Below, one piece after another: positions 19,334 to 38,893 of a stretch of 64,000 bases of DNA. The notes beneath the pieces were generated by a model that was not told the origin of the DNA, ran no database searches, and worked only from the letters and a program-made list of their open reading frames with translations. The translations under genes were made by a program, and so were the position numbers. How positions within the stretch are numbered: position 1 is the stretch's first letter; each line of letters begins with the position of its first letter. Origin of the DNA: Cyanophora paradoxa CCMP329 (lineage: Eukaryota; Plantae; Glaucophyta); assembly GCA_004431415.1 (NCBI GenBank), contig QPMI01000513.1:130889-194888 (forward strand), in the 5' to 3' direction.

Positions 19334-19874
19334 AAAAAAATGAGATAGTGGGGGTTCCAGCCCACCCACCTCTTTCTCACCCTCACTCCTCCAAACCACC
19401 CCAACCCACACACTCCAACGCCTTCCAACACACATTCTCTTCCATCCCTTCGTTACGTCTACCACCACAACCTCTCCAAACCAACCATCCAGCAACCGCT
19501 AGGTAGTATCTAACGTCTAGTCCGATCGATTTTGCAAAAGATATAGCAGTGATTTTAGGCGGACCCCCAAAGCGCCGGTCTCAGAATAATCTTCAGATAC
19601 AGCTAGACGTTAATTTTGTGTACTTTGAATCTAACAGAGAAAACATGTTTAGCTCAATTCTAGACGATATTAATGAGTACAATGAAGCTAACAGAGGAAA
19701 CACGTTTAGCTCAATTCTAGACGTTAATTGTGTGTATTTCGAATCTAAAAAACAAAGAGGTTTCAAGGGTTATGCTACACGTAATTACTATATCATCGGA
19801 ATCTAATTACATACTCGAGTTCAGGTTCTAGCTAGACGCTAATTATTCCCACCGATGACGTAGTCCAAGTTTAG
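19334..19874 (+). repeat. Element A left TIR, with an internal 57-bp tandem repeat (units start 19603, 19660, 19717)
   Basis: Reverse complement of 57161-57250 joined to 59538-59870. Confidence 0.92.
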
Positions 19875-20475
19875 TGAAACCACTTAACATTGGTTTGTAT
19901 TCGATCGACGGCCCGACAGGATCAGCGCTGCTAGAGGCGATGCGCAAGATCGATGTGTTTGCTACAGGTAATTCGCTAGCATTCTCATCCACCTCGGGGA
20001 TTGCGACGATCGTCTTAGCAGGAACAGCAGATGATGGAGGAGAAAGCTTTTTATCAATTTTGGTCTTAGCAATCGGTTCGTTTAAAATCTTGTTTTCCAT
20101 TTTAGTCTCAACCGCTATACCAGCAATAAGATCACCAGCACGCTTCTTTGAAATTGTTTTCAACCCAGTCACTGTTTTAATGAAATATCTGCTACGATTA
20201 CCAGTCTCTGATACATACAGCGGACCATCGTCAGTATCCTTCAGTTTACTAGTTTTGCTTTTCTTTGTCCGCGAATTTGGGATATTATCTAGAATAGCGT
20301 TTTCGTCGGCAGTAAGAGCAAAATCGATAGACGCACCCTCACCACCAGCAGTCCGACGAACTAAAGGATAGGATTCAGTATCACCGCTCAAAAATTCAAT
20401 ATTATTCTTTTTATTGGGTGAGTTTGTAAGTTTTCTAGAAGCCGAAGGCAAGTAGCCACTTGTGCTACGCACCAT
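19843..20475 (-). CDS. Element A hypothetical lysine-rich protein (210 aa)
   Basis: ATG-started ORF co-oriented with the penton; its stop lies in the TIR; no motif recognised. Confidence 0.6.
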   Translation of the reverse strand: MVRSTSGYLPSASRKLTNSPNKKNNIEFLSGDTESYPLVRRTAGGEGASIDFALTADENAILDNIPNSRTKKSKTSKLKDTDDGPLYVSETGNRSRYFIKTVTGLKTISKKRAGDLIAGIAVETKMENKILNEPIAKTKIDKKLSPPSSAVPAKTIVAIPEVDENASELPVANTSILRIASSSADPVGPSIEYKPMLSGFTKLGLRHRWE

Positions 20476-20544
20476 TTGTTTTAAATAAGGAACAGAAAAA
20501 GTCGACAGACAAGCTGCCTCGGCTGCGCATTCGCGAAAGTGAAT

Positions 20545-21420
20545 TTAAGCAAAACTGCGATCAAACGGATGAAACTCACTATCTGTGTTTCTGATTGACG
20601 AGCGAAGTGATGCCTTTGTGTATGAAGAATCTTCAATTTCGAACTCGATAACGAATGAGAATTCAGTGTTAATAGCTGCAGTAAATCCATTAAAATAACG
20701 TATTGACACATCAAGTTGTTCTAACTCAGAATTATGATCGACGGAAACAGGAACACGTTCATCAGATGTATATTTGATAAGCTCTCCAAATTTCGCATCG
20801 ATATGAATCTTTGCCAACGATGTGTTTGTCCAGTTATTTATTGTGTGAATCGAACCACGAATCTGATCGATATGTAGGAAGAGATAAGTATGATAAAGAA
20901 GATCAACAGGTATATCGCCAACGATAGCAAACGCATAATCAACAGCATCAACTGTGATTGGAGTATCCAGCTGTTCTGCGGAATCTGTAACAGCCTTTGT
21001 GAAGCCGAGCAGATTTGCGAGTTCAAGAGTGGAAAACGTCAGAGTAAACTCCGATTCACACAAGATTGTGATTTTCATTGAAACATCATCAAAAACCGTT
21101 AAGAACTTGCGTTGGTAAGTACTCCCCAAATAACTGTATTGTTGTGTTTTCAAAAGAACGTTCATATAATTCGTAAGAGATGTTGGAGTATATGATCCAG
21201 CTCGAAATAGGTTCGTTCTGGTTTTAATTACATTGCTAGGATCGAGCGTAATGGTTGTTATTGAAGCATCAGCAGCTAGATTATACATATTGTGAAAAAG
21301 TTCTAGCGATTCAATTCTAGCCGACTTCACGTTTGCTAACGCCCGAGGCAGATTAATTTTGAAATTCGAGGACGTGCCTTCGAACCGATCTCTAGAATCA
21401 ACATTTACGCGGAGTTTCAT
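20545..21420 (-). CDS. Element A minor capsid protein (penton)
   Basis: VNVDSRDR..NFKINLP..NVKSARIESLE, YLFLHI, LDVSIRYFNG..FSFVIEFE; divergent from the MCP gene. Confidence 0.85.
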   Translation of the reverse strand: MKLRVNVDSRDRFEGTSSNFKINLPRALANVKSARIESLELFHNMYNLAADASITTITLDPSNVIKTRTNLFRAGSYTPTSLTNYMNVLLKTQQYSYLGSTYQRKFLTVFDDVSMKITILCESEFTLTFSTLELANLLGFTKAVTDSAEQLDTPITVDAVDYAFAIVGDIPVDLLYHTYLFLHIDQIRGSIHTINNWTNTSLAKIHIDAKFGELIKYTSDERVPVSVDHNSELEQLDVSIRYFNGFTAAINTEFSFVIEFEIEDSSYTKASLRSSIRNTDSEFHPFDRSFA

Positions 21421-21464
21421 CTTTACAACAATATACGTGAAAATATTCTGTAATATAATATCAA

Positions 21465-22693
21465 ATGGCGCAAGCAGGAACTACTCTGAAAGAGCTCCTA
21501 ACAACCAAAGGATCGAACGAGCTTTATCTATCGCCAGGTCTAACTGTCGGTGTTAGCCCAAAGTTTAAGCCTTTCCTTGAGACGATCCGTCCGCGAGGCA
21601 ACTCATACGGATTCGCACAGACTGCTGCTTTCGACCTTCCGCGCAAGCAACTTCTAAATGGCGTCTCCCTATATTTTAAGGTAACAGTCGCTGGTGGAGC
21701 TGCCGCTTCGGTTCTTCCTAATGGTGCTGGTGCATTTATTGAAAACGTACGCTTTGTTCATGGATCTTTCAAAATGGTAATTCCCGGTGATTGGCTTACA
21801 GTGAACGCACTGATTGATAACAGCGTCGCATCCGCCAAGCTTTTGCTAGCAGCTACGGCTTTGGAAAAGACGCAGCTCTAGAGATTCTCGATGCTAGCCG
21901 AGAGTACGTGCTGAAGATCCCATCACAGCTTTGGGACAATTCATATTTCCCTCTGCTAGCACTTGCGGATATGCCAACCGTCGAGATTGACTTCCGTTCG
22001 GCTGGTGTGATTGGAACTGTTGCTGATGCTATTGCGACTCTAACGGATTGTGCCCTGGTTTGTCAGTTCGTGAATATTCCTAGCGAAGAGGCAGAGTCTA
22101 TGCTAAAATCTGCGAACGAGTCTGGCGGTATTAGAATTCCCTTTACTGAAATCATTTCAAAGCGCTCACGCCAGCTTAAGACGGACGACGCAGGAAACGC
22201 TGTCGAAATATCCCTTGCTAACGTTAGCGGCCTTGTGCACGCGATCCTGATGACAGTGCGTAATGCGAATCACCTGGGCACTCGCAATCATAATTCATTT
22301 GCCGGTAACGGTAACGCTTTGAAGATTGATTCGTTTGAGATCATGCACAATAATCGCACTCTCGATATCAGTAATAAGCCAATCTCTGGATTTGTTTCGA
22401 GCTGCTATCATATCCCAACTCAATATCGCGGAGCAACAACTGGTAATTCAGCCCTTGGTTTTGAAGACGGAAATGTCTATGGTATTGTGCTTTCGAAATC
22501 TGGCAAAGACTCCCTCCACAACGCTGTCCTCGGCTACACAGACTTCTTCAACTCAAGCAGCAGCTACTGCTCCCTCACTGTCACCGGATGTACAAACACC
22601 GCACCAGCTGTAGTCGATTTTCACGTCCTGCGCCACAACGTTCTCGTAATTAATTCATATCAAATGTCGACTCTAAAAGTAAGTAACTTCTAA
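21465..22693 (+). CDS. Element A major capsid protein (double jelly-roll), one frameshift near 21868
   Basis: 138 aa + 261 aa ORFs join by adding one A in GAAAAGAC; aligns end to end with the element B MCP; lies between penton and ATPase. Confidence 0.85.
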
Positions 22694-22694
22694 A

Positions 22695-23399
22695 ATGGAT
22701 ATCAAATTGTTTGATCCAGCAGAAGTAAAACTTCCTAAACGGTTCTTGTTTGTCGGCCCCACCAACTCGGGCAAAAGCACCTACGTAAAACACGTATTAA
22801 ATGCTGTAGCAAATCAGCTAGACGATATTTACGTCTTCAGCACAACGGCATTTACAGAACAGTGGGACGATACCACTCGCAAGAGCAATATTTATGAAGA
22901 ATGGGATACAGTTTTGGTTGAAGAACTTTTAGAACGTCAAAAAGAAAGACGACGCAAGAAAGATGATCGAAAAATAGCAATTGTTTTAGATGACTTGCTT
23001 GATAATGACCTAGTAAACGTCCACAGTGACCGATTAATGCAAAAGCTTTTTACTAGCGGAAGACATTACAATATATCGCTCTTTATCACGACACAACGTC
23101 TATGTGGCATTAGTCCGACGATTCGGCGAAATTGCGAATATGTATGCTTTTCGTCGATTCTATCGAATATTAAAGAGTTCGATTGCGTCTTTGCCGAATA
23201 CAACGCCGGAGCGAGTCGAGCAGTTTTAATGCGTCTTTTCCTTGAATGGGGTCATTCGTATCAGGTTTTGATATTTGAAGCCGCGACCGTGGACCGCGTC
23301 TACTCTGTTGATAAATCTTCTGGAGATTTTTCGGCTCTATCAAGCTTTTTACACGCAAGAAAGCGGCCCGGTCGAAAGCCGGCAACCAATCTTGTCTAA
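22695..23399 (+). CDS. Element A A32-like packaging ATPase
   Basis: GPTNSGKST, IVLDD, SGRHYNISLFITTQ. Confidence 0.93.
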   Translation: MDIKLFDPAEVKLPKRFLFVGPTNSGKSTYVKHVLNAVANQLDDIYVFSTTAFTEQWDDTTRKSNIYEEWDTVLVEELLERQKERRRKKDDRKIAIVLDDLLDNDLVNVHSDRLMQKLFTSGRHYNISLFITTQRLCGISPTIRRNCEYVCFSSILSNIKEFDCVFAEYNAGASRAVLMRLFLEWGHSYQVLIFEAATVDRVYSVDKSSGDFSALSSFLHARKRPGRKPATNLV

Positions 23400-23567
23400 G
23401 CAACCAACTAGTATATTCTGGTTTAGCTGAGGCAATCCACAAATAGCTTGCGCCCTTGTAAATGCCGAAGCTGATGCAGTGGCATGGTGAAAGTTGTGAT
23501 CTCCCCGGCCAACATATTTCTAAATCTTCAATATCCATCAAAAAGATAAAGGGTGTTATTCCTTCAA

Positions 23568-24104
23568 TTAAACCTGTGGAAAGTTCAGACGCAAGAACAG
23601 TTTGTCTGCTTCAGAAGTATTCTCCAAGACATATGCATCACGAGCACGAGCAGCTTCTTCTGCAGTTGAGAAATTGCCAACGTGCTTCAGGCGACCATTT
23701 ATTTTATAATGCGCCTGCCATTTACCACACTGCTGATCGAAGCTAACACCTATGAATCCACTCGAGTTATTTCGCCGCCGATTCTGGTTGAGCTGCTGCT
23801 GACGAGCAGTTGCCACACGGAGATTTTCACGTCTGTTATCCAGTTTGTTCAGATTTATATGATCAACTGTCAATCCGTTTTCGAGTTCACCCGAGATATA
23901 GTTATGCAAAAACACATTCTTTCTATTGATCGTGGTTCGAGCATATCCATAGTTATTTAAACGCCAGCGAAATCCAAGCATACGCTCAGCGTCATCCTGC
24001 GACACAAGTGCATAGGCAACTACGACTCCATTTCGACCATTCCTACGACCAGTAATTGGAATTAGAGCAACACCTTCAGGGACATCAGGAATTGCGACCT
24101 CCAT
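23568..24104 (-). CDS. HNH endonuclease with C-terminal AP2 domain
   Basis: LHNYI..VDHINLNKLDNRRENLR and NSSGFIGVS..KWQA..HVGNFSTAEEAARARD. Confidence 0.92.
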   Translation of the reverse strand: MEVAIPDVPEGVALIPITGRRNGRNGVVVAYALVSQDDAERMLGFRWRLNNYGYARTTINRKNVFLHNYISGELENGLTVDHINLNKLDNRRENLRVATARQQQLNQNRRRNNSSGFIGVSFDQQCGKWQAHYKINGRLKHVGNFSTAEEAARARDAYVLENTSEADKLFLRLNFPQV

Positions 24105-24239
24105 ATTTCTTGCGCAGCGAGCTGCTTGTCTGCGACTTTTTTGTTACATTTACAGATTGCATTATCTTTAAGCCTAAAAAGTCGCGCTAATTTGTTATAA
24201 AAGGATTTATGTCTCATATTATTGAGATATAAGCGAACA

Positions 24240-24548
24240 ATGAGTTCTGCAGATTATACTGCTGTAAAGCGTGGCCGTGGACGTCCGCCAAAGGTTCGTC
24301 TTTTGACAATGGATTCATATGAACCAAAGAAGAAGGGTCGTAAGCCAATAGAGGTAACACCGGAGATTTTAGCAGAGCGACGCAGAAAGAATGCTGAACG
24401 GAATCGTAAACTACGTCATACGAACGAAACATATCGTTTGAAACAGCTTGCCATCACAGCAAAATATCGAGCTGAAAATCCTGATCGTATTCGGGAGTAC
24501 CACAGAAATGCTATTTCGCGTAGATGTCTTGCTAAAGACGTTGCTTAG
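24240..24548 (+). CDS. Small basic AT-hook DNA-binding protein
   Basis: KRGRGRPPK and KKGRKP motifs. Confidence 0.7.
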   Translation: MSSADYTAVKRGRGRPPKVRLLTMDSYEPKKKGRKPIEVTPEILAERRRKNAERNRKLRHTNETYRLKQLAITAKYRAENPDRIREYHRNAISRRCLAKDVA

Positions 24549-25434
24549 CACCAGCTCTAAGCTTTGGCTCTCCTGCAATCTCAAGCTTCTTGAGCTCTCG
24601 ATCCTTCCGGTTTTGGCCGCTGTATTTTTTCGTTTCGATCAATCCCTCGCGTCTCAATCGTCTCTGCTGTCGCATTTTCACTTCTTCTTTTTCGATTCGT
24701 GTTTGATCAGGGAGATCACGAGGTTGACGTATTTCAGATGGTTTAACACGCCTAGAAATTTCCACACCTTGCTTTGTAATTAACCTAACGCGGTTCTTAT
24801 CAGCGCCAGCAACTATGTACGTCTCTTTGCTTGGTTTTGCCAGACCCTTCGCAAAAACACTGCTCTTTGGCTCAAGGATCTGCACCTCCGTGCCAGGTTT
24901 AGGCATATTTGTGTTCTCTCGTTCAATATCGTTCTGTCGCTGTCGCACTTGGTGAAGCTGCTCGGCAACCTGTGTATTTTCACGCATCCACGTTGGTGAT
25001 CGCTCCTCGCCAAATGCACTGTGGGCTGTCTCATTGTACGCCTTGACAATTGCCGGCAAACGTGAGAGGAAATGCGGTGATCCACGTGCTTCAGTGTCAG
25101 CTTGGATAAGTGCTCGCAATGTCCTAGCGAACCTGTCGATAATTCCAAGTTTGTTACCTTTAGAAATGTGGTCATCTTTGGCAACATCAGTGTGTATTTT
25201 CAACGAGTTCTCTTCGACCATTGCCCGAATCGCAGCTGTGTTAAAACCGTTGTCGGCGGAGAAACCCCAGATCCCTGGCAGTTGCTCAATCATTTTTGGA
25301 AGTTGTTTGAATGTTTCTATTTTTCGAACGATAGCGAAACGGGTTGCAATTTCTACGGCCGCAAACAGGCGATATCTCCCAATAAATAATACATCAATTT
25401 GCCATGCACCAGGTGGCGCTGTTAGAGTGTACAT
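24532..25434 (-). CDS. Element A rve-type integrase (short)
   Basis: WQID..SADNG..GIIDRFARTL..YNETAHSA; C-terminal RREG / RELKKL.IAG shared with the element B integrase. Confidence 0.85.
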   Translation of the reverse strand: MYTLTAPPGAWQIDVLFIGRYRLFAAVEIATRFAIVRKIETFKQLPKMIEQLPGIWGFSADNGFNTAAIRAMVEENSLKIHTDVAKDDHISKGNKLGIIDRFARTLRALIQADTEARGSPHFLSRLPAIVKAYNETAHSAFGEERSPTWMRENTQVAEQLHQVRQRQNDIERENTNMPKPGTEVQILEPKSSVFAKGLAKPSKETYIVAGADKNRVRLITKQGVEISRRVKPSEIRQPRDLPDQTRIEKEEVKMRQQRRLRREGLIETKKYSGQNRKDRELKKLEIAGEPKLRAGAKQRL

Positions 25435-25443
25435 CCTTATTAT

Positions 25444-28108
25444 TCAGACACGATTTTTGTAATGCCCAATAGCCCAGGTGTTGATTTTATCATTATCTAG
25501 AAAACGCTTCGTATCTAGCGGATGCAACGCTTGACGAGAGGTATTTTGCAGATATATTTCATGTCGTTTCGAACGGAAACCGAGAATTCCTTTGATATCA
25601 TACGATTGTTTTTCTCCTTTTTTTGGGCAGACACACCGGAGGAATACATCCCTTGTGAGTCTGTTGTAATATGTTTTTTGAATACCTTTGCACACCTGCT
25701 TATCTGTGGAATCTTCACGCGAATAATAGTAAGATTTCGGCCGGTTAGCGATCCACTCTGTCATTTGTAGACCATGAAGCTCATCCTTGAATAATCCCGG
25801 AGTTTTCCCCATCGATCGTAGAGCTCGAACCTCATCGGCTGTCATGCCATCAAAGAATCGATGTGTCTCTGGGTAGTCGCTAACATCCAGCTCATGCTTG
25901 ATTGAGCGTAAATCAGCATAGATATCTTTGGTGCGAACCTCGATGATGAGACTGTCAGTATCAGTTCCAAGTAGCTTAAGCCGATGACCCCAAAGCGGTT
26001 TGAGCACCTGATAGTAGAAGCGATACATGTGCAGCTTGGACAATTCGAGAATGACAAATCCACAGTAAATTGGTTTATTTAAATTATACTCACTTTTTCG
26101 CTTGGAAACGAATACAAGGTTCTCTTCGTACATCACCACCTGCTTCAACCGATTTGGTTCGCTGTTTATCTTTGCCAAACGATCACCAGATGTAACAAGC
26201 TCGGAGAAACAGTGTTTTCTCACGTTCTCCATCGTCTTTCCGAATACACTGTTATTCATTAACTTGAAGAGATCCTGTTTGTATTTGTGATCAGCACGCT
26301 TGCGTTCACTTGTATTAAGATCGATGAAATCGTTCAGCCACGCACTTTGTTCGTACGATTAAACACGGTGGATGTTGGTTACAATCATTCCCAGTGTAGT
26401 ATAAAGCTTAAGCAAACGCCCATCAACAACATAATTCTTCTTTGGCAACAGGTTTGGAACCAATTTTGGGGTTCTTTCGACTGAAGTAAGCTTTTCGTTG
26501 TTAATCATATCCTGCTGTTGTTTCGATAGATGATCTATGGACACGCACATTCGTTCAGGAGCTAGTGGATAATCTGAGAAATCATCGTGGAGATGGTCAG
26601 GCATGTACATATCAACTTCTAGAGCATAGCCACGAGGACCATCAGCGTCAAGGTTTTCAACGAACTGCATAGCATCAACATCTTGATCGAGTTTTTCCCA
26701 GCGGAAACCTCCAGTGGGGAGTTTTTGTTTCATAGCAACGCCATACAGATTATTCGCATCAAGGTACATCAGCCACGATTCTTTGCCTGTTTTTTCGTAG
26801 TTTTGCACACATTCAATCTGGGTTGCTGATTCATCAGCATGCGTATATTTTCCAAATTTCTTTAAAATTGTCGCTGCTTTTGCTGCTTTCTTTTTATTCT
26901 TTGCAATCACTCTTGAACTCATGTCTTTTACGTGTTTCAGGAACTCGTTATCAGCTTTAGCGTATCTCTTTGATATCATGCTGATGCCACCCCTAATTCC
27001 TGATTCTATGAATCTATACATATCTTGTTGTCCCTCGTGAAAAAGCTCAAGCTTAATTCCTGTGCGTTTAAGAGCAGCTTGCCAAGCGAATCCTGGTGAT
27101 GATATGAAATAGCTTGGATCTAATCCATACGTTTCCATGCATGTATCACGATAGTTTTCAAATACATCGGCAAGTAACGAAATGTCAGTATTCATATATT
27201 CCATAGTATAGTCTGATATCGTTCTACATGCAAGCTTTCTCCAAACGATCTGAGCATGTGCGTACTCGTCTTTTGAGCATTTCTTTTGTTTTAGTTCGTT
27301 CTTAAAGTATCGACGTACAGGTAGTTCTGTTTCTTGAAAACGTTGCCAGCTTGATATATAGCTATATGGATATATCCCTTGCTTGTCATCAACTCGAATC
27401 TAGTATCATCCGGATACATTGTGCGCGTGATCTTCTTCTTCTCCGCTGGGACCGCTTTCGCTAGATCATCCAAACTAGCATTCAAATGTTGCATCGAATC
27501 ACGAAGTACATAAATTCCATACTTAAACTGTGATATCTTCTCGCTATTCTGAAAGGTTTGATCAAATTTGATCGAAAGGAGACTCTGCGGGCGGAGCCGG
27601 CGTTCGAGCCCCTTCTTAACCTTCTTTTTCTGCTCTGGGGTCATCTCACGTCCACCGTACTTGCTTTGAAACTCACTTTCGACATGTGCTTGAAACTCAG
27701 CCCAAGCTGCTGAACGGCGGTTTTTGCCAGATGCTATTGCTCTCACGAACAGGTGAAAGTCAAATCCACGACCATTATGAAAGAATATAGGAACAGCAGC
27801 AGATTTTGCACGGCGGCGATTGCAAGCACGACAGGCTGCTCCAATGTATTTACCTGTATCATGACAGTGATCACGGTGCTTGTCTTTGATATCTTTGAAC
27901 GTGTTTTTGCACATATAACAGTCTGTCGTTGTTTGAAAACACTGTTCCTCTTCCGGATTCATCTGGATTGGTACACTTGCTTTGAGAAGTTCTCTAAATT
28001 GTGGTTCCATTTCGTCAAGCCATTTTACGAACTTATCAGCACAGTCTTCATTCTCGGAACCCATACATTTAAATGAAAACTGTTCGCCTTTCGAAGATAC
28101 AACCAGAC
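25444..28108 (-). pseudogene. Element A protein-primed DNA polymerase B, 3' part (interrupted by element B; frameshifts)
   Basis: RDHCHDTGKY..AC..CN, FFHNGRGFD, DISLLADVFE, YLDANNLYG, MNNSVFGKT, GTDTDS, PGLFKDE. Confidence 0.93.
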
Positions 28109-28391
28109 ACACATAGTAAAATGCGGAGTTTTAACCCTCGGCTTATCTTAATTGATTTTGTTGATATATCTCGTATATTCTATTTCAATCAATCGATAAT
28201 CTGTGTATATCTTATCGAATATTCATTTATTTCGTTTATTTTGTATTCTTTTCGATATTTTATCGTAAATTTCTCTTATTTTCCGATTAGTCTTACTGAG
28301 TCTATCGATAATCTGTATATATTTCCGAATAATATAACTGAATCTCAATTAGATCTTGCCTCTGGTTAAAACTCCGCATTTTACTATGTGT
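28109..28391. repeat. 283-bp terminal unit bounded by a perfect 28-bp inverted repeat
   Basis: ACACATAGTAAAATGCGGAGTTTTAACC at 28109-28136 and its reverse complement at 28364-28391; mirrored at 55312-55594. Confidence 0.95.
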
Positions 28392-28634
28392 GATTGGTCT
28401 AAAAGTTAATTGATTTAATCGATATTATATTCATGTACTTTCTCGATTAAAATTTAATTAAATTTAATTCATTTAATCGGAAATATATCGCTAAACTCGA
28501 TTAAGATCCATAAATGATTCATTTGTTTATATTAACAAATCGATCTCTTATTGAATTCAATCGTAATTATACATGAAACTTATATGATTTTATCATTGTT
28601 TTGTTGAGTCTAAGGGGGGACCCTTAGAAAATTG

Positions 28635-28756
28635 GGTGTGACAGGTGTGACAGGTGTGACAGGTCAATCCCAAGGAAAGTCCTAGTGAGAAATTGATTTT
28701 TAAAATCCACGGGATAAACCTGTCACACCTGTCACACAAACCATATTCAGTAAGGA
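28635..28756. promoter_or_regulatory. Inverted 9-bp iteron cassette (putative origin), TIR copy
   Basis: (GTGTGACAG)x3 - ~52-bp spacer - (CTGTCACAC)x2 - AAACCATATTCAGTAAGG. Function is inferred. Confidence 0.6.
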
Positions 28757-28921
28757 CCTCATATATTGTGAAAATCTCAGTGTTAGTTGTTGTTAAATCT
28801 TTCAGGCAGCATTTATTTGTCAGGCATTAAATCTATCGATTTTCATAAAGTATTTTATTTTGGCTAAGTCATTGTTTGGATTAACAATGAAATTTCAATT
28901 TTATAAAAGTTTTCTAAAAAG

Positions 28922-28983
28922 GTGCCTGACAATGCCTGACATACTATATTAGTGCCTGACAACTATATTATAGTGCCTGACAA
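28922..28983 (+). repeat. Four TGCCTGACA direct repeats in the TIR
   Basis: TGCCTGACA x4, sharing the TGACA core with the iterons; mirrored near 54727-54787. Confidence 0.8.
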
Positions 28984-29232
28984 ACCATATATGGTAATAC
29001 TATATGTTATAACCTACTTTCTCAGTGTTAGTTGGTGTAGTTGATTCAAATAATGCATTTTATACTCTGATTCATTGTTATTTCCTGTGAAATTTGAGTC
29101 AACTCAACCCACTTAGTCAACCCTTGCATTGAATTCGTAACAAAATCCATATACTATCGATTAATATGAGTCAACCTTGAGTCCACTTTAATAATAGGGG
29201 AATCTTGGGAGATGCTTATTAGATGCTATTAA

Positions 29233-30618
29233 TTAGCTAGTTTTGGTCCTTTCTCTTAGTGTTCTTTGAGGTTTAGGGGCTGTATATGACTCCTTAGTAG
29301 TCTGAAAGTCATTATACCATCTTTGGCTATTCACTTCTGAAAGTTTCTGTGTTCCTGCTATAGTGAGCTTTTTGAGTTCCCTGTTAACTTTGCCAGCCTT
29401 CTCCTTTCTAGCCTCTATCAAAGGCTTATCTGGGACTTCATTAGCAGCTTCTATGCCCTCTCTCCTTATAGAAGCATCAACCCTAGCTTCCTCTTTGGCT
29501 TGCTCTAAGGCATCCACTGTAGGGGCTTCCAGATACTCAACTGCATTCACAGGCAACAGCTCATGGAAAGCAAACCTGTTATCTATGATCTCTCCAGTGG
29601 GACTCTTTAGCTTAAACTTAAAGCCTTCTCTACTATCAACAGTGTAAACCATCCTAGACCAATTGTTACCCTGTTTAGCAAATGGGTTCTTCTCTACTTT
29701 CACTCTAACAAACATGCCAGGCTGCATGGTATCAAGATAAGCTATTGATTTCTTGAATCTTTCATCTTCTAATCCTACTATATACCTATAATGCTCCTCT
29801 GTAGTTTCACCTGGCTTCATCTTAGTAGCTGAGTGAACTGTATTATTGTAATTAAACTCAATATCACCCAACACATCAAAGAATCTAGCTGTGTTATTAG
29901 CTATGCAATAGTTTGTGATCAGTCTCTTAATCTGCTTGTTAAAGGCTTCAATTCGACCTTGGCTTCTATGGTCAGCAGTTCCACTCACTTGGTGTTCTAT
30001 GAATTTACTAGATAAATACTCCTGGAATATTCGATTTTGGAATTCACTCCCAGCATCTGATTGAACTTTTACTATGGGTCTTGCCACTCTCATTTCAAGC
30101 TGTTTAAATGCAGCTAATGTAGTGAGAGCTGATTTATCCCTTATAGGTATGATATACCCAGTTCTCAGTGTTGATTCCATTGCAGTCATAAAGGTATCAT
30201 AGCCATTGTTTTGTTTCTTATAAGCTGGGAAAAAGAGCAAATCAATCACATAGGTATCAAGGGGTTGCCTAATTGGGACCATGGGATCTCTCTTCCTAGA
30301 TATAGCAGGTGCATTGATCTGAACTACCTCTTGTTTTTTATAGAACTCTTGCAACTGCTTATAGGATTCATCTGGTAACTCAGCCCTCATAGCTTGAAGC
30401 CCTTTGTAACCAGTTCTCACATCATAGAATCTCTTGGCAATCTTGCTTGTTTCTTTCACTGCAATAGCAACTGGAATCTCTACTGGGACAAGCTCTTTCA
30501 TTTCAGACTTTTTTACAATTCGAGATTCCCCCTTTTCCTCCTTTGGAACTGTGATGGGCAGTAGGTTTCCTTGCAGTTGCTCAGTGGTTCTCCTAACTAT
30601 TCTTCCAGTTGCTGGCAT
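29233..30618 (-). CDS. Element B rve-type integrase (461 aa)
   Basis: DDE triad YVID / QSDAGSEF / GRIEAFN; YNNTVHSATKMKP. Confidence 0.93.
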   Translation of the reverse strand: MPATGRIVRRTTEQLQGNLLPITVPKEEKGESRIVKKSEMKELVPVEIPVAIAVKETSKIAKRFYDVRTGYKGLQAMRAELPDESYKQLQEFYKKQEVVQINAPAISRKRDPMVPIRQPLDTYVIDLLFFPAYKKQNNGYDTFMTAMESTLRTGYIIPIRDKSALTTLAAFKQLEMRVARPIVKVQSDAGSEFQNRIFQEYLSSKFIEHQVSGTADHRSQGRIEAFNKQIKRLITNYCIANNTARFFDVLGDIEFNYNNTVHSATKMKPGETTEEHYRYIVGLEDERFKKSIAYLDTMQPGMFVRVKVEKNPFAKQGNNWSRMVYTVDSREGFKFKLKSPTGEIIDNRFAFHELLPVNAVEYLEAPTVDALEQAKEEARVDASIRREGIEAANEVPDKPLIEARKEKAGKVNRELKKLTIAGTQKLSEVNSQRWYNDFQTTKESYTAPKPQRTLRERTKTS

Positions 30619-30621
30619 CTC

Positions 30622-33600
30622 TTAATTAAAAGGAACAGAATTAATACCATCTGGTAAGATGTATCTCTTTGCATCAAAGCAGTTTAGGGCAACCCTTCTA
30701 CTCACAGTGTCTATTATTGTGTGATCTGCCCTTCTTTTCTGCTTTGCAGTCACAGTCTTGCTGATACCTGCAAATAAACACTGTTTAAAATCATTAAATT
30801 GGAGTTCCTCAGTTGAAGTCCCAGAGAGCTTACTCCTCTCAATCTCAGCAGTTCTGAAACTGTAAACTTTTGCTCTCAGACCCACATACTCCAATATAGC
30901 AGAGCCAGGCATTTCATTTTTGTATTTACCTGGGGTCATTCTGGAATCACCTCCAAGGTCTAATGCATAGGATATATTCTCTATATCTTTTTGTAGGGTC
31001 TTAGATTCGATATATAGACAAAAGGAGTCAGTATCATGGAATAGTAACTTTGCTTTTGTCCATTGGGACCTTACAGTATCATAGAAGAACTTGTAGTTAT
31101 GCAGTTTGGCTGCATCCAGAACATAAGCCCCAATAGCAACTGGCTTATCTAGCTTCACATGCTTTGTGTAAAACTCAAAGGCAACTGCTTTTTCGTTTAT
31201 GGGACTTGTTGATTTCACCAATGGGGAGGCTGCATATTTCATAAACAGTTTCTCACTGTTTGCAATCTTAACCACAGATCTACCTCTGCAAGATTCAATG
31301 CATTTCCCATAGATTGAGTTATTCATGAGTTTATAGAAATCAGCCTCGAATTTATTCACTGCTTTCCTTCTCATCTCAGTATTCAGCTCAATGTAGGGTT
31401 TCATTACAGGAGCCACAGTAAATGATAGGACCCTGTGAACCTTCTTTAGTTTCACCCCTTTGTCCAACAGATACTGTAGAAGAGGCTCAGAAATCACATA
31501 GTTGGTCACAGAACCAAAGGTTGCAGTTAGCTTAGGGGTCTTATCAAGCTCTTCTCCTGAGAGATCTAATAGGCTCTTTTGATATTGTGATAATTCTGCA
31601 TATTCTACTATTTTCTTGTTAATAATTAGGGGGAAATCACTGTGGTCTAGATATAGCCTAATTGGGTAATCCAGATCAACTTCCAGGAAACTGGATCTGT
31701 TATCTTGTGGGTTGAATTCGGTCTCCCATCTAAAATCACCAACTGGAATTGGCTGACTCAAACAGTAGCCATACAAGTTGTTAGCATCAAACAGCATTAT
31801 ATGGGAGTTCTCACCATCAGCCTCAGCATACCTACAAGGCATTGTTGCAAAGCCACCCCTGATTCCCCTCTCAACAAATTCGTATTGCTCTACATCACTG
31901 ATGAGTTCTATTTTTGCCTCGGTGGTCCTAAGCATAGCATCCCAAGATAGCCCAGGTGCAGATACATAATGAACTGGGTCAAGTCCATATACTGAGTGTG
32001 AAAGCCTTCTGAAAGCCTGGAATTTGCTCATTAACTCATCTACATCAGCAGCCCCAAAGTCCATAAAATTACTTGCATCAATGAACTTGTAAAGACCCCA
32101 TTGCAATGAAAGGTATTGATCAAAGTTTTTCGAAAGGATTTCGATTCGCTTTTTATCACCCATGCCTGCTATTTTTCTGAAAATGAATGTCCCACAGTCA
32201 TCCATTTGGTCAACAACAACTGCAACTTTGGTTTGCTTTGAGATTCTCCTATGGAGATTGCAGTTTCTGCATGCAGGAGCAATGTAATGACCTGTGTGGT
32301 GGTCATGATCTCTGCATTTGAAGTTCTCCTTGGTGAACCTCTCACTGCAAAGGTAACAGTGTTTAGTAGCCCTGTAAACAGCCTTTTGCTCATCTGTGAG
32401 TTCATTCATGGGAATATTGGTAAACAGAAAATCGATCAGCTCTCTTGCTTTGGACTCCAAGCATTCAAAGAGACCTCCCATTGGATCCTGCCCCTCAAAT
32501 CGAAAATCTTGAACATCTTCCCCAGTGACTACTCTAAGGTTCACTGCTGAGACTTCCCTCTTGGATTTCGATGCATCAATGGGGATGCTTCTATGTTCAA
32601 TCTTGCAGTAAACCACAACAGGAAGCCACACAGTTTTCCTGAGGTTTTTCAGTCCAAACTCTATTGTGGTGTCAGGCTTAGGGGTGATTCCCTTTGAGAG
32701 TCTCCAATCAATGCATCTGTTTGAGTCCACATGAGCAGTCAGTTTAGCCTCAGACCTGAATCGAGATAAGCATGTATCACAGTAGTGTAACTTTTGATCC
32801 TTGGTTTTATCAAGGGCAACTCTGAGAAGTCTTGAAAGGGACATGATAGTAATATAGTGACCATTCCCTTCATCATCATGAATGAGCATTAGATTAATCT
32901 TTTGCTTTCTGCCTGGGTTGCTGGATTGATGTAGGGGATATATAACATCTCCATCCATTCCAAATATGTTTATGCTGATGCCTGCATTTTGAGATTCGAA
33001 TTTATCAATGATTTCAGCATCACAAGGAACAGGGAATGGGATATTGTCGAAATTGAGAGCCAAAGGATTGTATGTGGTTGGTGAGTATTTCCATTTGCGA
33101 TATTGTGTAAGCTCACTTCTCTTGTGGGAATTTACATCTTTCCTATGGATCCATGCCAAAATGGCATTTTCAAAGCAAGAATCATCAATATTTCGAATAT
33201 TCACTGTGGCTCTCTTGGCTGCAATTGATTCTGGTGTTTTAACATAGCAGCCACCAGTTGGGGCATAACTCATAATAGCAACTCTGAGCATTTCGATTCT
33301 CTCCAATCGATAGCTATCAACAACATTCATCTGCTCCTGACACATTTGGGCTGCTTTATTCAGCTCAGTTCGAATATTTCTCGATTTGGTTAATACAAAA
33401 TAATCGCTGTAAATGTATTTCGATATCCAAACCTGTGGATTGCTGACTTTTACGAACTTGCAGATAAACGATAAGCGAACTTTGATTGCCCTGAATTGAT
33501 CCAGACTATCTCTTAAACGTTTTGGTAGAGAGGTTGCAATTCTATCTAAATATTCAATCACATCAACAACAACTTCCCTTCTGGCTCTGTATGTGAGCCA

Positions 33601-33867
33601 GCGATATAATTCATTCATAGCTGTTCCATCTTCCGCCTCTGGTTCTATTTGCCTCAGGCGATCCAGTTCATCAAGAGTTTCAACTTTATCATAGAGGTTA
33701 TTGGCTTTTCTGGTTAATTTTGCTAAAGTGGGTCTGCCCCTTGAAATAAATCCGATTTCCCGGTCATATTCAGCCTCTGTGATTTCATGGGCTGCATACA
33801 GTGTTCCCAGTAATCCCATGAGTTCCCATTTCTTCTCTCTAATGAGTCTGTTGCTAATTCGGGGCAT
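30622..33867 (-). CDS. Element B protein-primed DNA polymerase B (1081 aa, intact ORF, exonuclease degenerate)
   Basis: CFENAILA, RDHDHHTG..ACRNCN, DANNLYG, KLMNNSIYGK, HDTDS, GKYKNE, GLRAKVY. Confidence 0.95.
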   Translation of the reverse strand: MPRISNRLIREKKWELMGLLGTLYAAHEITEAEYDREIGFISRGRPTLAKLTRKANNLYDKVETLDELDRLRQIEPEAEDGTAMNELYRWLTYRARREVVVDVIEYLDRIATSLPKRLRDSLDQFRAIKVRLSFICKFVKVSNPQVWISKYIYSDYFVLTKSRNIRTELNKAAQMCQEQMNVVDSYRLERIEMLRVAIMSYAPTGGCYVKTPESIAAKRATVNIRNIDDSCFENAILAWIHRKDVNSHKRSELTQYRKWKYSPTTYNPLALNFDNIPFPVPCDAEIIDKFESQNAGISINIFGMDGDVIYPLHQSSNPGRKQKINLMLIHDDEGNGHYITIMSLSRLLRVALDKTKDQKLHYCDTCLSRFRSEAKLTAHVDSNRCIDWRLSKGITPKPDTTIEFGLKNLRKTVWLPVVVYCKIEHRSIPIDASKSKREVSAVNLRVVTGEDVQDFRFEGQDPMGGLFECLESKARELIDFLFTNIPMNELTDEQKAVYRATKHCYLCSERFTKENFKCRDHDHHTGHYIAPACRNCNLHRRISKQTKVAVVVDQMDDCGTFIFRKIAGMGDKKRIEILSKNFDQYLSLQWGLYKFIDASNFMDFGAADVDELMSKFQAFRRLSHSVYGLDPVHYVSAPGLSWDAMLRTTEAKIELISDVEQYEFVERGIRGGFATMPCRYAEADGENSHIMLFDANNLYGYCLSQPIPVGDFRWETEFNPQDNRSSFLEVDLDYPIRLYLDHSDFPLIINKKIVEYAELSQYQKSLLDLSGEELDKTPKLTATFGSVTNYVISEPLLQYLLDKGVKLKKVHRVLSFTVAPVMKPYIELNTEMRRKAVNKFEADFYKLMNNSIYGKCIESCRGRSVVKIANSEKLFMKYAASPLVKSTSPINEKAVAFEFYTKHVKLDKPVAIGAYVLDAAKLHNYKFFYDTVRSQWTKAKLLFHDTDSFCLYIESKTLQKDIENISYALDLGGDSRMTPGKYKNEMPGSAILEYVGLRAKVYSFRTAEIERSKLSGTSTEELQFNDFKQCLFAGISKTVTAKQKRRADHTIIDTVSRRVALNCFDAKRYILPDGINSVPFN

Positions 33868-33979
33868 AGTTCCTAACTTGTTCCTACTAAAAGGGGAGGT
33901 TTTAAATGGGGATATTCCGAACGCGAAAATACTTAAAGGAATTTTTATATTGTATATATATAGAAGCCAAATAGCAAGA

Positions 33980-34297
33980 ATGAATCCGGACGGTCAAAGA
34001 ACGCTTAGTATTTCAGCCATCATGAGAAGTATTAAAGAAAGAAATGAAACCTGTGAAAACTCAGAATATAAACGAATTCTATGCAGTTTATGTAAATGTG
34101 ATGAGACTAGCTATGATCAGTTTGTATGTGATCAATGCTTCAAGACAGTCTGTATTGGATGCATGAAACAGCAAGAGGAAATAGTCGGGAATACAAAATG
34201 CCCATTCTGTAGAAACACATTACAGTATCCAGAGTTCACCTTGTACAACATTCTGGACTACAATGCATGTGATGTTGAAACAATTACATTTGGCTGA
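33980..34297 (+). CDS. RING-like zinc finger protein
   Basis: CSLC..CDQC..CIGC..CPFCR; ATG at 33980. Confidence 0.7.
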   Translation: MNPDGQRTLSISAIMRSIKERNETCENSEYKRILCSLCKCDETSYDQFVCDQCFKTVCIGCMKQQEEIVGNTKCPFCRNTLQYPEFTLYNILDYNACDVETITFG

Positions 34298-34298
34298 G

Positions 34299-34342
34299 CA
34301 ACAAAAAATGATTTAAAGAAAATATCTTCTATATAGATATAT
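34299..34342 (+). promoter_or_regulatory. Conserved upstream motif AACAAAAAATGATT..TTAAAGAA..TCTATATA (putative viral promoter)
   Basis: Recurs at 34983-35016 and 35424-35483, each just before a start codon. Confidence 0.7.
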
Positions 34343-34348
34343 GTAAAA

Positions 34349-34999
34349 ATGTCATGCCCAATCTGTTTCAAAACTATTCAAAGGAATACAATCATTGAGC
34401 TTGCTTGTGAGCATTTCTTTTGTGAAGCCTGCATTATAAAGTATATATATAAGGTTCATGACTCTAATGAGGTATCCCTGCTCTACTGCTGCACACAGAA
34501 AGCTTTCAGACAGTTTAAAGGGTACCCAGAAATGATGCTTGCAGAGAGCAACTATTGCATATCATGTCCTCTTTGCAGGTGTGAATATTCATTTCTTTCA
34601 TACATTGCAAGGATTTCACGGACAAATCCTCTTGAACAACTCATCTGCAAGGTGTGGTTTAGAGATGAGTTCTATGATCTTGGTTTATGTCATTATTTGA
34701 CAGATGAAAATCAGTTCTATAACTATATTCCGTTGTGTGATAGGCTCCATTGGGAAAAATGTGAAAGTGTAAAAACAAATTTTGCGAATGATGTCATCAA
34801 AATGTTCAGTGATCGCAAACACAATGAATACCACATGTACAAATGTGATTGTAAGAAGCCAATCTGCCCAAAGGTCTTTCCTGTGCCATCAGCAACATGT
34901 GATTGCAAACAACATGCAAGCCCTGAGGAGTTTGAAGAAATGTTGCTTACATATTGTTCAAAGAAATATCCAGAAACCACAAAACAAAAAATGATTTAA
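34349..34999 (+). CDS. C3HC4 RING finger protein
   Basis: CPIC..LACEHFFCEAC...CPLCR with a Cys-rich tail. Confidence 0.8.
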   Translation: MSCPICFKTIQRNTIIELACEHFFCEACIIKYIYKVHDSNEVSLLYCCTQKAFRQFKGYPEMMLAESNYCISCPLCRCEYSFLSYIARISRTNPLEQLICKVWFRDEFYDLGLCHYLTDENQFYNYIPLCDRLHWEKCESVKTNFANDVIKMFSDRKHNEYHMYKCDCKKPICPKVFPVPSATCDCKQHASPEEFEEMLLTYCSKKYPETTKQKMI

Positions 35000-35036
35000 A
35001 GAATTCTCTATATATATTAAGAGAGACAGAGGAAAA

Positions 35037-35291
35037 ATGCCACTCAGTGAAGCCCAGAAGAGAGCTATGAAGAGGTACCAGCAAACTGAAAAAGGTAAGG
35101 CTCAAATCAAAAAGTTTAACGAAAAAATAGCCACACAGCTTAGAGATCTATATCAAACCGATGATACTTATAGAGCCATGAAAATAGCCAGTTCATGTCA
35201 GCGAAAGTATGCAGCCAATGCAGTCTGCTTTGTAAAATATTTATATGATGTCCCTTACTCAAATCGAGGGAGAAAATTGAAACATGTCTAA
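35037..35291 (+). CDS. Small basic hypothetical protein
   Basis: MPLSEAQKRAMKRYQQTEKGK; preceded by the conserved motif. Confidence 0.65.
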   Translation: MPLSEAQKRAMKRYQQTEKGKAQIKKFNEKIATQLRDLYQTDDTYRAMKIASSCQRKYAANAVCFVKYLYDVPYSNRGRKLKHV

Positions 35292-35503
35292 ATTATTTTT
35301 CCCAGCATATTACTAGGCTGGGGATATGCTGTTTATTCGCTGAAATACCCATTCATCCTTTTTGTATCTAAACCACTCGATATATCATGTGGATAAATTT
35401 CGTAGGGATACTTTCTCGATTTCCAACAAAAAATGATTGGGGGACCCAAAACTACTTAAAGAAAAATCTTCTATATATATAAAAGGGACCCCGATCGCTG
35501 AAA

Positions 35504-37831
35504 ATGAACGCCAAACAGACTAAATCGCTCAAATCGCTCGCTAACTGGCTCAGATCTGATGAGGATCTAGCCAAAAACATGATTATCCCAGTGAAACCTG
35601 ACAGCAAAGACCCTGTTTTCAAGCATAAGGGAGGTGCTTGGTCCTGGGAAAAGTATGAGGAAGCGCTGGCAACTAATCAGTATGTATCTTGGGGCATTCT
35701 GCTCTCAGACAACATGATGGTTATTGACTTTGATGATGAGGAGGACTTTGAGAAATTCCGGGATATGTTTCCTGATGACTTTGATGCCAATCAGCCCATG
35801 GCAAAAACTAAAAAAGGCTATCATGTCTACTTTAAACGACCTGAGGAGTTCAATAAACTCAAAATTACCGATAAGGCTCCTGGCTTTAAAGGCTTTGAGA
35901 AGGTTGACCTGAAAACAATCACTGGAACTGGAACTTCTGGACTGATCAATGTGTGTCCCAGTGTGAACAAGGCTTGGGTAATCTCCCCATGGGATGATAC
36001 CTGTGATTTCAATGAGCCTACTGATGACTTCAAAAAGTGGATAATAGATAACTACATCTATAAGAGTGAGTATACTGCTAATGCTACCTCACATGATGAA
36101 CTGGAAAACAATATTATCAAAGAGCTGGTGGATATGGGATTTATGCATCCCAATATAATCTCTAAAACTGAACTTGGCTTTAACTTTGATGCTGCTAACA
36201 AGGGACTCAATTGCCCATGCTGCAATGGTTCACATGAATCGAATAACTGGTATGTTATGAAAGCTAAAGGAGATGATAACAAATACATTGTGTCAAGCTA
36301 CAGTGGAAATTGCAAAAAACGATTCATCTGCATTGGAATGCAATCTGATATCTTCAATCTTATAGATAAATCCGCTGGTTCTGGTGGCGCTCATTATGAT
36401 GTGAGTTTAGTATGCAAAGAGGTTCTTAAACATACATGGAGATACTCCAAAAAGTCATGGTTCAAACTCAATACTGATACTGGGATTTGGGAGCATGATG
36501 ACACAAACCTAAAGATTTACCTAGATATAAGCCGTCTTGTTGTCCCCCAATACCTTGGAAGGGCTGTGCATTATAGTCAAAGAGCTTTAAAGGATGAGGA
36601 AAACAAAGCAGCTTTCGAAGAAAGATCCAAAACATTGATGACCATTGCCAAAAATCTTAAACAATCAGGATTTCGCAAATCCCTTCTGACTGACTTGGTC
36701 CCACTGCTGAATGATGATGAATTCTTTGAGAAGATTGACACAGTTCCATATGTGATTGGATTCGAAAATGGTGTATTTGATCTGACCACTATGACTTTCA
36801 GAAAGGGTAAACTGGAAGATATGGTGAGCAAGACTGTGGGTTATGACTATACTGAAAATGTAGACCCCAAGAAAATAGAGCATCTCAATCAGATTTATAA
36901 AGAGATTGTGGATGATCCAGCAGAGCGAAAGTATCTTCTGGCATCCATTGCAATTGCCCTTAGTGGATCAACTAAATCCCAGAAGTTCTATATGTGGACT
37001 GGTGCTGGTGCTAATGGTAAATCACTTGTTCAGGAATACTGCAAACAGATATCTGGTCGTTATTACAGCCCTCTCGAAATATCCTATTGGACTAAGCCTA
37101 AAAAGAACTCATCAGAGGCTACTCCTGAACTTGCCAAACTCCTTGGAAAGCGACTTGTATTCAGTAATGAGGCTGAAGATGGTGATAAACTGCAGATCTC
37201 CAAGATTAAGGAGGTCACAGGTGGAAATGAAATGACTGTGAGAGCCTTGTTCAAAGACCCAGTTATCCTTACCCCAATGTTTCAGGTCTACATTACAACT
37301 AATGACAATTTGACTATAAATAAACCAGACTTTGCAATTCAAAGAAGACTTTCCTATCAGAGATTCAATAATATATTCAGAGAGAAGCCAGAAGCTGGTC
37401 AGAAGAAAGCTGATCCAACTCTGTTCACACTTCTTCACAATGATGATGAGTATAAGATGGCTCACATGAAGATATTACTGGATATGTGGAAGAACAAAGA
37501 GGTTGAAGAGATCTTAAGAAGTCCCCCTCAATCGATTATTGAACAGGGAATTAACTTTATAGCTGAAAATGACAAGATTGGTGAATGGCTTCGAGATAAT
37601 TTCGAGGTTACACATAATGCTAACGACTTTGTTTCCAGTGATATCATTTACAAATCATACAAAAGTGTTGATGATAAAGTTGAATGTGTATCTGTTATGA
37701 AAAGAGTAAGGGAGATCTTCAATGTAAAATCAGAAAGAAAACGAGTTAATGGAATTCTAGCCAGAGGATATATTGGGATTCGAAAGATAACAAGGGTTCA
37801 GGAAGACAATGAAGATGATGCCGAATATTAA
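35504..37831 (+). CDS. Primase-polymerase (PrimPol/AEP) fused to D5-like SF3 helicase
   Basis: VIDFDD, TKKGYHVYF, CPCC..H..C, IGFENGVFDL, GAGANGKS, KEVTGG, ITTN. Confidence 0.93.
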   Translation: MNAKQTKSLKSLANWLRSDEDLAKNMIIPVKPDSKDPVFKHKGGAWSWEKYEEALATNQYVSWGILLSDNMMVIDFDDEEDFEKFRDMFPDDFDANQPMAKTKKGYHVYFKRPEEFNKLKITDKAPGFKGFEKVDLKTITGTGTSGLINVCPSVNKAWVISPWDDTCDFNEPTDDFKKWIIDNYIYKSEYTANATSHDELENNIIKELVDMGFMHPNIISKTELGFNFDAANKGLNCPCCNGSHESNNWYVMKAKGDDNKYIVSSYSGNCKKRFICIGMQSDIFNLIDKSAGSGGAHYDVSLVCKEVLKHTWRYSKKSWFKLNTDTGIWEHDDTNLKIYLDISRLVVPQYLGRAVHYSQRALKDEENKAAFEERSKTLMTIAKNLKQSGFRKSLLTDLVPLLNDDEFFEKIDTVPYVIGFENGVFDLTTMTFRKGKLEDMVSKTVGYDYTENVDPKKIEHLNQIYKEIVDDPAERKYLLASIAIALSGSTKSQKFYMWTGAGANGKSLVQEYCKQISGRYYSPLEISYWTKPKKNSSEATPELAKLLGKRLVFSNEAEDGDKLQISKIKEVTGGNEMTVRALFKDPVILTPMFQVYITTNDNLTINKPDFAIQRRLSYQRFNNIFREKPEAGQKKADPTLFTLLHNDDEYKMAHMKILLDMWKNKEVEEILRSPPQSIIEQGINFIAENDKIGEWLRDNFEVTHNANDFVSSDIIYKSYKSVDDKVECVSVMKRVREIFNVKSERKRVNGILARGYIGIRKITRVQEDNEDDAEY

Positions 37832-37872
37832 ACAAAACGATTGATGATTGAGATTTACATATATTTTTATAG

Positions 37873-38871: not shown

Positions 38872-38893
38872 ATCTCTAATAAAACAGAGATAA

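Follow-up and report, generated by a model that had tools for sequence, protein, structure and literature searches.

Why an integrated Polinton-like virus (PLV) should carry an inverted copy of its own terminus a short distance inside each end, and what such a copy could do for the element, is the question raised by this locus. The window (the whole 64-kb stretch of Cyanophora paradoxa DNA that was analysed) holds element B, a PLV; element A, an older Polinton-like element that B interrupts; and element C, a single end of which lies within the window. Host sequence around the elements is about 75% GC.

Element B and its surroundings

Element B carries the features by which PLVs are recognised, namely long terminal inverted repeats (TIRs), a 6-bp target site duplication (TSD), an rve integrase, a protein-primed PolB and a packaging ATPase. 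Pfam gave no match to an adenovirus-like maturation protease in the 28 B ORFs scanned, a search in which a divergent protease could be missed, and B is therefore filed as a PLV rather than as a canonical Polinton in the narrow sense. The main features are as follows.

28109..55594, element B, 27.5-kb PLV in the polymerase gene region of element A (TIRs, TSD, empty site, genes)
28103..28108, + strand, left copy of the TSD, CCAGAC
55595..55600, + strand, right copy of the TSD, CCAGAC
28109..29216, + strand, left TIR of B, a 1110-column match to 54491-55594 at 99.2%
29233..30618, - strand, rve integrase, retrovirus-like, 461 aa, acidic triad D126/D188/E224 present
30622..33867, - strand, protein-primed PolB, 1081 aa
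35504..37831, + strand, Prim-Pol plus D5/P4-family SF3 primase-helicase, 775 aa, catalytic and Walker motifs present
39743..40438, - strand, A32-like packaging ATPase (PF04665)
40498..41864, - strand, probable major capsid protein gene, two ORFs (41361-41864, 40498-41325)
19334..59871, element A, older Polinton-like element interrupted by B, used as an internal control

The two TIRs of B (~1.1 kb) differ by eight single-base indels, none of them in the first 500 bp, and the integrase gene adjoins the left TIR. An empty site for B is present in contigs of runs X16, X7 and X6, with loose ends before 55595. The capsid candidate gave no Pfam match; its look-alikes carry PF04451 at 0.96, a weak result by the recognition value, it is 24% identical to the matching ORF of element A, and its single-sequence fold is uninformative (pLDDT 30). 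B also encodes a patatin lipase and a tail-chaperone domain. The patatin-like lipase lies next to an F5/8 discoidin domain (43880-45435), a domain found mainly in rhizarian and glaucophyte PLVs according to the available part of PMC12220804.

Element A is smaller than B, has imperfect TIRs and a 5-6-bp duplication, and interrupts a host gene with a BTB domain; C is inserted about 400 bp past its right end. The right TIR of A itself holds a 2.3-kb insertion (57250-59537) with GC-rich palindromic stretches and no clear target duplication, for which an empty-site joint occurs in all four runs examined (X1, X6, X7, X16). One part of it, 58746-58979, is repetitive, with high depth and numerous joints; in three runs these include a joint to a B-type end.

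Structure of the terminal units

A search of the window with the terminal 28-mer of B (28109-28136), allowing up to 8 mismatches, returned four copies with 0 mismatches each, starting at 28109, 28364, 55312 and 55567, and nothing else. Both ends of B are thus 283-bp units closed by a perfect 28-bp inverted repeat (28109-28391, 55312-55594), in which the inner arm is an exact inverted copy of the terminus about 250 bases inward, as the sequence-only reading had described for both termini. By comparison, the terminal 28-mer found inverted matches of at most 14-19 of 28 positions when the TIR was Markov-shuffled 1000 times.

28109..28136, + strand, outer arm of the left unit, the element terminus, starting with a short AC dinucleotide repeat
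28137..28363, + strand, loop of the left unit, 227 nt, 74% AT, T-rich on the + strand, no strong fold of its own
28364..28391, - strand, inner arm of the left unit, the terminus copied exactly and inverted
55312..55594, - strand, right unit, of the same sequence as the left one, with inner arm 55312-55339, loop and outer arm 55567-55594
60279..60579, + strand, terminal unit of C (outer arm 60279-60306, 245-nt loop, inner arm 60552-60579), arms 27/28 complementary

Because B is bounded by its 6-bp duplication and the empty site is found in run contigs, the units belong to the insertion and are a built-in part of its ends. The stem is predicted at about -33 kcal/mol in B and in C, and whole-unit folding against shuffles gives z values of -10 and -7 for the B and C units, so that a fold-back, itself a prediction, should be energetically available in both elements. 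The loop folds little or no better than shuffles and has no conserved structure, and imperfect pairing beyond the 28-bp arms is not significant, with 6% and 27% of the null reaching the same level. A coding role for the unit was considered and dropped: Pfam returned nothing for the 82-aa ORF that spans the B unit, and no corresponding frame is open in C, where the longest has 44 codons. By eye, the host flank and inner flank agree at four of six bases at B-left and C and at none at B-right, a resemblance set aside as chance.

Element C has the same design with a different stem, changed in both arms as had been read from the sequence alone. Its own 28-mer occurs twice in the window (at 60279, and at 60552-60579 with one mismatch), giving a 301-bp unit. 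The mismatch is a G opposite an A in the folded + strand, which is not a wobble pair. Nine arm positions differ between B and C; eight of them are changed identically in both arms, and the ninth is the G-A mismatch of C. As judged from sequence, the two arms are coupled to each other. The earlier claim that this co-variation points to selection on the structure stands only as to the pattern: copying of one arm from the other, or a binding protein shared by both, yields the same mirrored changes, which are no proof of a fold, and the sole exception does not pair. Both motifs said to flank the arms are indeed present in B and C, with the correction that the outer motif of C (60305-60311) overlaps the arm by 2 bp and is not strictly adjacent.

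The flank junction of C has a low, single-copy-like depth in runs X1, X6, X7 and X16. A contig over this flank reaches 48 bp into the element (60279-60326) at low depth in three runs, and for this reason it is likely that the window's copy of C has a private change around the arm mismatch; the arm of the C family may be perfect. Homology between the B and C loops is seen when both are read in the same orientation (z 4.7) but not when one is flipped (z 1.2), and there is none between the TIR sequences immediately inward of the units (z 0.3). Since the loop is homologous in one orientation and the inner TIR is not, the unit as a whole is constrained and polar. A 36-bp tandem array in the fibre-gene region of B (48478-48975) has related copies in C (63085-63863), from which the visible end of C is taken as the counterpart of the right end of B. 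Runs X7 and X6 contain yet another form of the terminal unit (55308-55594), the third variant, which is multi-copy and differs in its longer loop and in its inner TIR; in X7 one 350-nt contig runs through its inner TIR, arm, loop and arm, and the loop is 11 nt longer. The unit is about 0.3 kb long in B, C and this third variant.

Mobility and inversion of the units

Each unit resembles a small element with terminal inverted repeats, and the sequence-only reading had accordingly offered, as its second option, a composite-transposon arrangement, with the units as its flanking modules or as MITEs that can move alone or invert. The evidence on solo units and on other insertion sites comes from contigs of short reads in four (X1, X6, X7, X16) of the 22 listed runs rather than from a whole genome; in such contigs depth is a rough guide, rare forms are dropped, and 31-letter words barely span a 28-bp arm. 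None of the three units in the window has a target duplication of its own at its flanks, which speaks against the possibility, raised beforehand, that they are unrelated MITEs with a TSD on both sides, and a search of the window for 14-mers of the B and C loops found none outside those loops. The two X7 contigs joining the inner TIR to the inner arm sum to a depth of 4971, compared with 4328 for the loop and outer arm of the main family and 47 for the flank junction; in X16, the C unit contig stands at 462, the neighbouring TIR at 524 and the flank at 42. By this rough guide, the units are not in excess over the inner TIR.

Contigs with loose ends in GC-rich DNA occur at the outer end of the unit. 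At the inner arm, there is no host-like loose end among 12 of 16 rows, except for the multi-copy variant with the other inner TIR, and the table of contig joints covering X6 and X7 contains no strand switch. Loop polarity is the same in all three ends in the window and within single multi-copy contigs of X7 and X16. In X16 the contig of C continues through the inner arm without a break, and together with the unbroken third-variant contig of X7 it points to one polarity; in X6, the contig of the third variant breaks at the inner-arm boundary (record starts 55310). The composite-transposon, MITE and inversion option thus fails on the missing duplications, on the depths and on loops that are homologous in the same orientation only, and we consider it extremely unlikely. 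The unit is conserved within the family, as represented by B, C and the third variant, all from one organism, and is not a MITE artefact.

The replication proteins and iteron arrays

The PolB of B retains the three polymerase motifs (A, B and C) and the Cys/His residues of a vOTU-like domain, and its N-terminal region can be aligned with those of homologs; the assignment of N-terminal terminal-protein and vOTU domains by sequence follows the available part of PMC11071308. The enzyme has lost its exonuclease motifs along with about 90 aa. The comparison was made with the best 120 of 1904 homolog matches. In this set, the Exo I Asp that is replaced in B is Asp in 106 of 120 homologs, with 13 gaps and one other residue; 118 of 119 others have the Exo II motif, which is missing from B and from P0004, its closest homolog; and B has a 15-residue stretch where all 119 others have at least 103 residues. 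Within the same best 120 of 1904, the exonuclease-dead state is common to B and P0004, which are 46% identical, and is found in none of the 119 others. Because P0004 shares the state at 46% identity, the exonuclease loss is old and not the decay of one copy. In mavirus, exonuclease loss together with an SF3 helicase is known and has been read as a polymerase-helicase pair, not as end patching, in the portion of PMC11071308 that was available.

The primase-helicase of B scores above the curated cut-off of TIGR01613, the P4-family primase model. It is accompanied by a 9-bp repeat, all 22 matches of which in the window fall in five inverted arrays.

28636..28737, iteron array in the left TIR, inverted (3 + 2), 9-bp iterons, 527 bp from the terminus, predicted origin
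37891..37992, iteron array behind the primase-helicase gene, inverted (2 + 3), beginning 60 bp past the stop codon, predicted origin
54969..55069, iteron array in the right TIR, inverted, 527 bp from the tip
60742..60822 and 60978..61067, two iteron arrays of C, inverted, with a one-base variant of the iteron

Origins of SaPIs have the same layout of opposed iterons behind a rep gene, as described in the accessible text of PMC9371898, and the array at 37891-37992, with at least two opposed iterons per side directly behind an SF3 rep gene, fits it. For PLVs, inverted repeats have been proposed as the origin for the primase-helicase (PMC11296320, in part). The arrays are predicted to be candidate origins of the primase-helicase. 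Those at 28636 and 37891 bracket the block of integrase, polymerase and primase-helicase genes. An opposite-strand joint at 54985/55075, in the right-TIR array, is seen in contigs of all four runs and may reflect another copy of the array or a flipped centre. An Rfam search over the iteron palindrome returned just a sub-threshold match to a microRNA family (34 of 100 bits). As far as motifs can tell, B is newly described in combining a proofreading-dead terminal-protein polymerase, a P4-family primase-helicase with intact motifs and SaPI-style iteron arrays.

Element A serves as the contrast, with the reservation that it is one element (n=1). It has no inner copy of its terminus (best inverted match 15-17 of 28), no iterons, and no primase-helicase match among its scanned ORFs, and in the pieces of its polymerase the Exo II and III motifs are readable.

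Comparison with known systems

The sequence-only reading knew of no description of such ends in Polintons. This has to be narrowed, in that contiguous palindromes at the tips of TIRs, with hairpin priming proposed, are reported for Halocafeteria seosinensis virophages and PLV subtype 4 (10.64898/2026.07.28.741278); the gap limit in that work was 10 nt, and for long-loop ends the statement stands within the literature searched. Both cases have an inverted repeat at the TIR tip beside the target duplication, in elements with an rve integrase, and a proposed role in end replication. The Halocafeteria palindromes are contiguous (52 nt in one subtype) and belong mostly to elements with replicases other than pPolB, whereas B and C have a 28-bp stem around a polar loop of 227-245 nt, well outside a gap of at most 10 nt, and B keeps a terminal-protein polymerase. 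A long-loop terminal copy was not found in the available parts of 10.1101/2022.07.28.501842, PMC12220804, PMC12721341, PMC10120064 and 10.64898/2026.10.13.758929. Neither the long-loop form nor PLV end patching was found in the literature searched, where bioRxiv supplements could describe long-loop ends.

Compared with Polintons/Mavericks and PLVs (available parts of PMC4196379, PMC12220804 and PMC11071308), B shares the TIRs, the 6-bp duplication, the rve integrase, the pPolB, the packaging ATPase, the probable capsid protein and the short terminal tandem repeat. It differs in the extra inverted terminus copy inside each TIR, the lost proofreading motifs, the additional primase-helicase with its iteron arrays, and the maturation protease, none having been detected. 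Mavirus, compared here by its replication genes, likewise combines an exonuclease-less pPolB with a separate SF3 helicase and an rve integrase (PMC11071308, in part), but the polymerase of B is closely related to exonuclease-bearing Polinton enzymes and shows a local deletion, and its helicase carries a Prim-Pol domain. The Rep/PriRep proteins of SaPIs are similar in being SF3 primase-helicases with at least two opposed iterons per side directly behind the gene (PMC9371898, in part). In contrast, B has 9-bp iterons, extra arrays in both TIRs, a eukaryotic host and probably a linear genome, and the array centre in C is not clearly AT-rich by eye.

An order of arm, loop, arm and inner sequence is also the layout of the extended parvovirus ITR. 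Parvovirus and AAV ITRs resemble the units of B in having arm-loop-arm-unique sequence at each end that is able to fold back. However, B has a double-stranded 27-kb genome with protein-priming genes, and no HUH nuclease, inner T-shaped palindromes or sign of flip/flop was found in it.

The ends of Streptomyces linear replicons offer a functional likeness. There, overhangs are about 300 nt long and the first palindrome pairs with an inner one (PMC4513846, in part), and fold-back extension repairs truncated tips (PMC5449611, in part). As in Streptomyces, the terminal bases of B and C are complementary to inner sequence within ~300 nt, and B would further resemble it in internal initiation, a terminal region of ~300 nt, terminal-protein priming and fold-back tip repair, the tails and the patching being our inference for B. 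Streptomyces telomeres are bacterial, have several tightly packed palindromes and depend on Tap/Tpg proteins, whereas in B one stem closes an unstructured loop and the polymerase is of the Polinton type, with its priming region fused. Because packed palindromes are absent, the comparison is one of working alike and not of membership, and the match in size (~0.3 kb) to the Streptomyces overhangs may be chance.

Relatives with DNA context were not found in viral contigs searched by integrase, arm pattern, iteron pattern, primase-helicase and ATPase, in prokaryote genomes searched by iteron pattern, or in phage records searched by polymerase. The pattern of the unit design gave four matches in metagenomes, all four of which lack the outer arm and were rejected as chance. 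The closest integrase (P0001, 76%) and the closest polymerase (P0004, 46%, among the best 120 of 1904) each form a cluster of one member and lie on a short contig. An integrase alignment collected 23 distant loci at 23-35% identity, of which seven have a perfect inverted repeat of at least 16 bp within 600 bp, though in no case could the repeat be placed at the terminus of an element. A terminal unit was seen in none of the 23, a weak survey because only one of these loci (L009) had both TIRs at contig ends, and that locus has no such inverted repeat. A polymerase-pair search yielded one distant locus (L028), in which no such unit was seen, and a PDB sequence search with the B polymerase returned nothing relevant. 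Four of the distant integrase-bearing contigs contain intergenic inverted-repeat units of 150-300 bp (L008, 4657-4840; L011, 3328-3628; L012, 1962-2155; L025, 8710-8953); the one in L008 lies between the integrase and polymerase genes and contains two 61-bp direct repeats.

A model for the ends of element B

The observations from which a mechanism can be built are an inverted copy of the terminus ~0.25 kb inside each end with fixed polarity, a proofreading-less terminal-protein polymerase, and a primase-helicase accompanied by iteron arrays, which lie behind its gene and ~0.5 kb inside both ends. The reading we put forward, which we hold to be quite possible though short of probable, is that the unit folds back when the end is single-stranded, so that 3' tails of ~300 nt left by internal initiation are patched by protein priming. 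In this scheme, the primase-helicase would start replication at the internal iteron arrays, and forks would proceed to both tips of the excised linear genome, leaving a 3' single-stranded tail. The last 28 nt of the tail would pair with the inner copy and form a duplex recognition site, onto which the terminal protein would be loaded, allowing the terminal-protein polymerase to fill the tail. The inner copy would also template restoration of the tip, and in this way the arms could stay identical while the element diverges. A constrained, polar unit is what such patching predicts and what hairpin transfer does not. Against patching, the free linear genome, the DNA-bound terminal protein, the single-stranded tail and the binding of iterons are all steps that we infer, and mirrored arms follow equally from copying or from a doubled binding site. 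Two replicases in one element have also been read as a transient replacement (10.64898/2026.07.28.741278) or, in the available part of 10.64898/2026.10.13.758929, as a mobile module bracketed by repeats, and the arrays of B at 28636 and 37891 do bracket the replication genes as that second reading has it.

Fold-back could serve protein priming in another way, which was the first option of the sequence-only reading. Here the whole genome would be replicated by strand displacement initiated at the ends, aided by the helicase, and the fold-back would give each displaced strand a duplex origin with no need for TIRs 27 kb apart to pair. The intact polymerase motifs, N-terminal priming region and terminal short repeat agree with this, as does the fixed polarity of the loop; the racket model of Polintons requires such a duplex end (PMC4196379, in part), and the pairing of exonuclease loss with an SF3 helicase has its precedent in mavirus (PMC11071308, in part). 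However, intact primase motifs and five iteron arrays are left without a role, 1.1-kb TIRs could already form a panhandle, and element A, with a conventional polymerase, has no unit. On its own we regard this as unlikely. Fold-back with protein priming, in which it is joined with end patching, fits the evidence, and the two taken together are somewhat probable. Self-priming from a hairpin would dispense with the terminal protein: the folded 3' end, as in parvoviruses, would prime synthesis inward, and the integrated form would be the extended end after resolution. The unit has the corresponding layout, and the X6 contig of the third variant breaks at the inner arm, which is where a flipped form would branch. 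Hairpin transfer is expected to flip the loop. A single polarity was nevertheless found in all three window ends, between B and C, and in multi-copy contigs of X7 and X16; moreover, Pfam gave no HUH nuclease or protelomerase match in the 28 ORFs of B, and the priming region of the polymerase is retained. Even with the same model proposed for the contiguous palindromes of Halocafeteria elements (10.64898/2026.07.28.741278), it is decidedly improbable here.

The remaining explanations give the inner arm a role in recognition or excision. It may be a second double-stranded binding site, for the integrase or for the polymerase/terminal protein, with identity kept by the shared protein or by gene conversion. 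Mirrored changes are expected of two copies of one site, the sole exception in C is a mismatch that does not pair, and pairing ends at 28 bp around a loop without a fold of its own. Such a site leaves unexplained why the copy extends to the element's outermost base and why it is inverted at a near-constant spacing of 0.3 kb in three variants, and an integrase cutting at inner sites should yield solo units or ends without units, yet contig depth reveals no surplus of units. We consider this unlikely. The stem could instead act as an excision signal, extruded from each tip of the provirus when transcription or a host replication fork unwinds it, to present the terminus as a duplex to the integrase, which would then cut the element out. 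It ends exactly at the element boundary beside the target duplication, the integrase gene adjoins the left TIR, and in the racket model the integrase mediates excision from single-stranded DNA (PMC4196379, in part; 10.64898/2026.07.28.741278). However, element A transposed with a duplication and has no stem, and no account is given of the link with the primase-helicase, the iterons and the exonuclease loss, so that this explanation is very improbable.

Implications for Polinton-like viruses

Replication and end regeneration in Polintons and PLVs rest on a model with little direct test, and this element supplies small, defined parts for assays with oligonucleotides and mini-replicons: the 28-bp stem, of which natural variants exist, an array of 9-bp iterons, and the two enzymes. 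It also shows that searches for palindromes with short gaps miss a class of terminal structure. If end patching is true, it would explain why two replicases are retained in some of these viruses and why proofreading can be lost from a protein-primed polymerase, and it would suggest an intermediate in the takeover from protein priming by primase-helicase replication in this virus group. It is possible, if doubtful, that a PLV lineage has split its replication in two, with a primase-helicase of the P4/SaPI type acting at iterons and the proofreading-less PolB kept as a telomere-patching enzyme for a 0.3-kb tip. Were this so, a telomere of the Streptomyces type would have been reached independently in a eukaryotic virus, as a stable design and not as a passing stage of replicase replacement.
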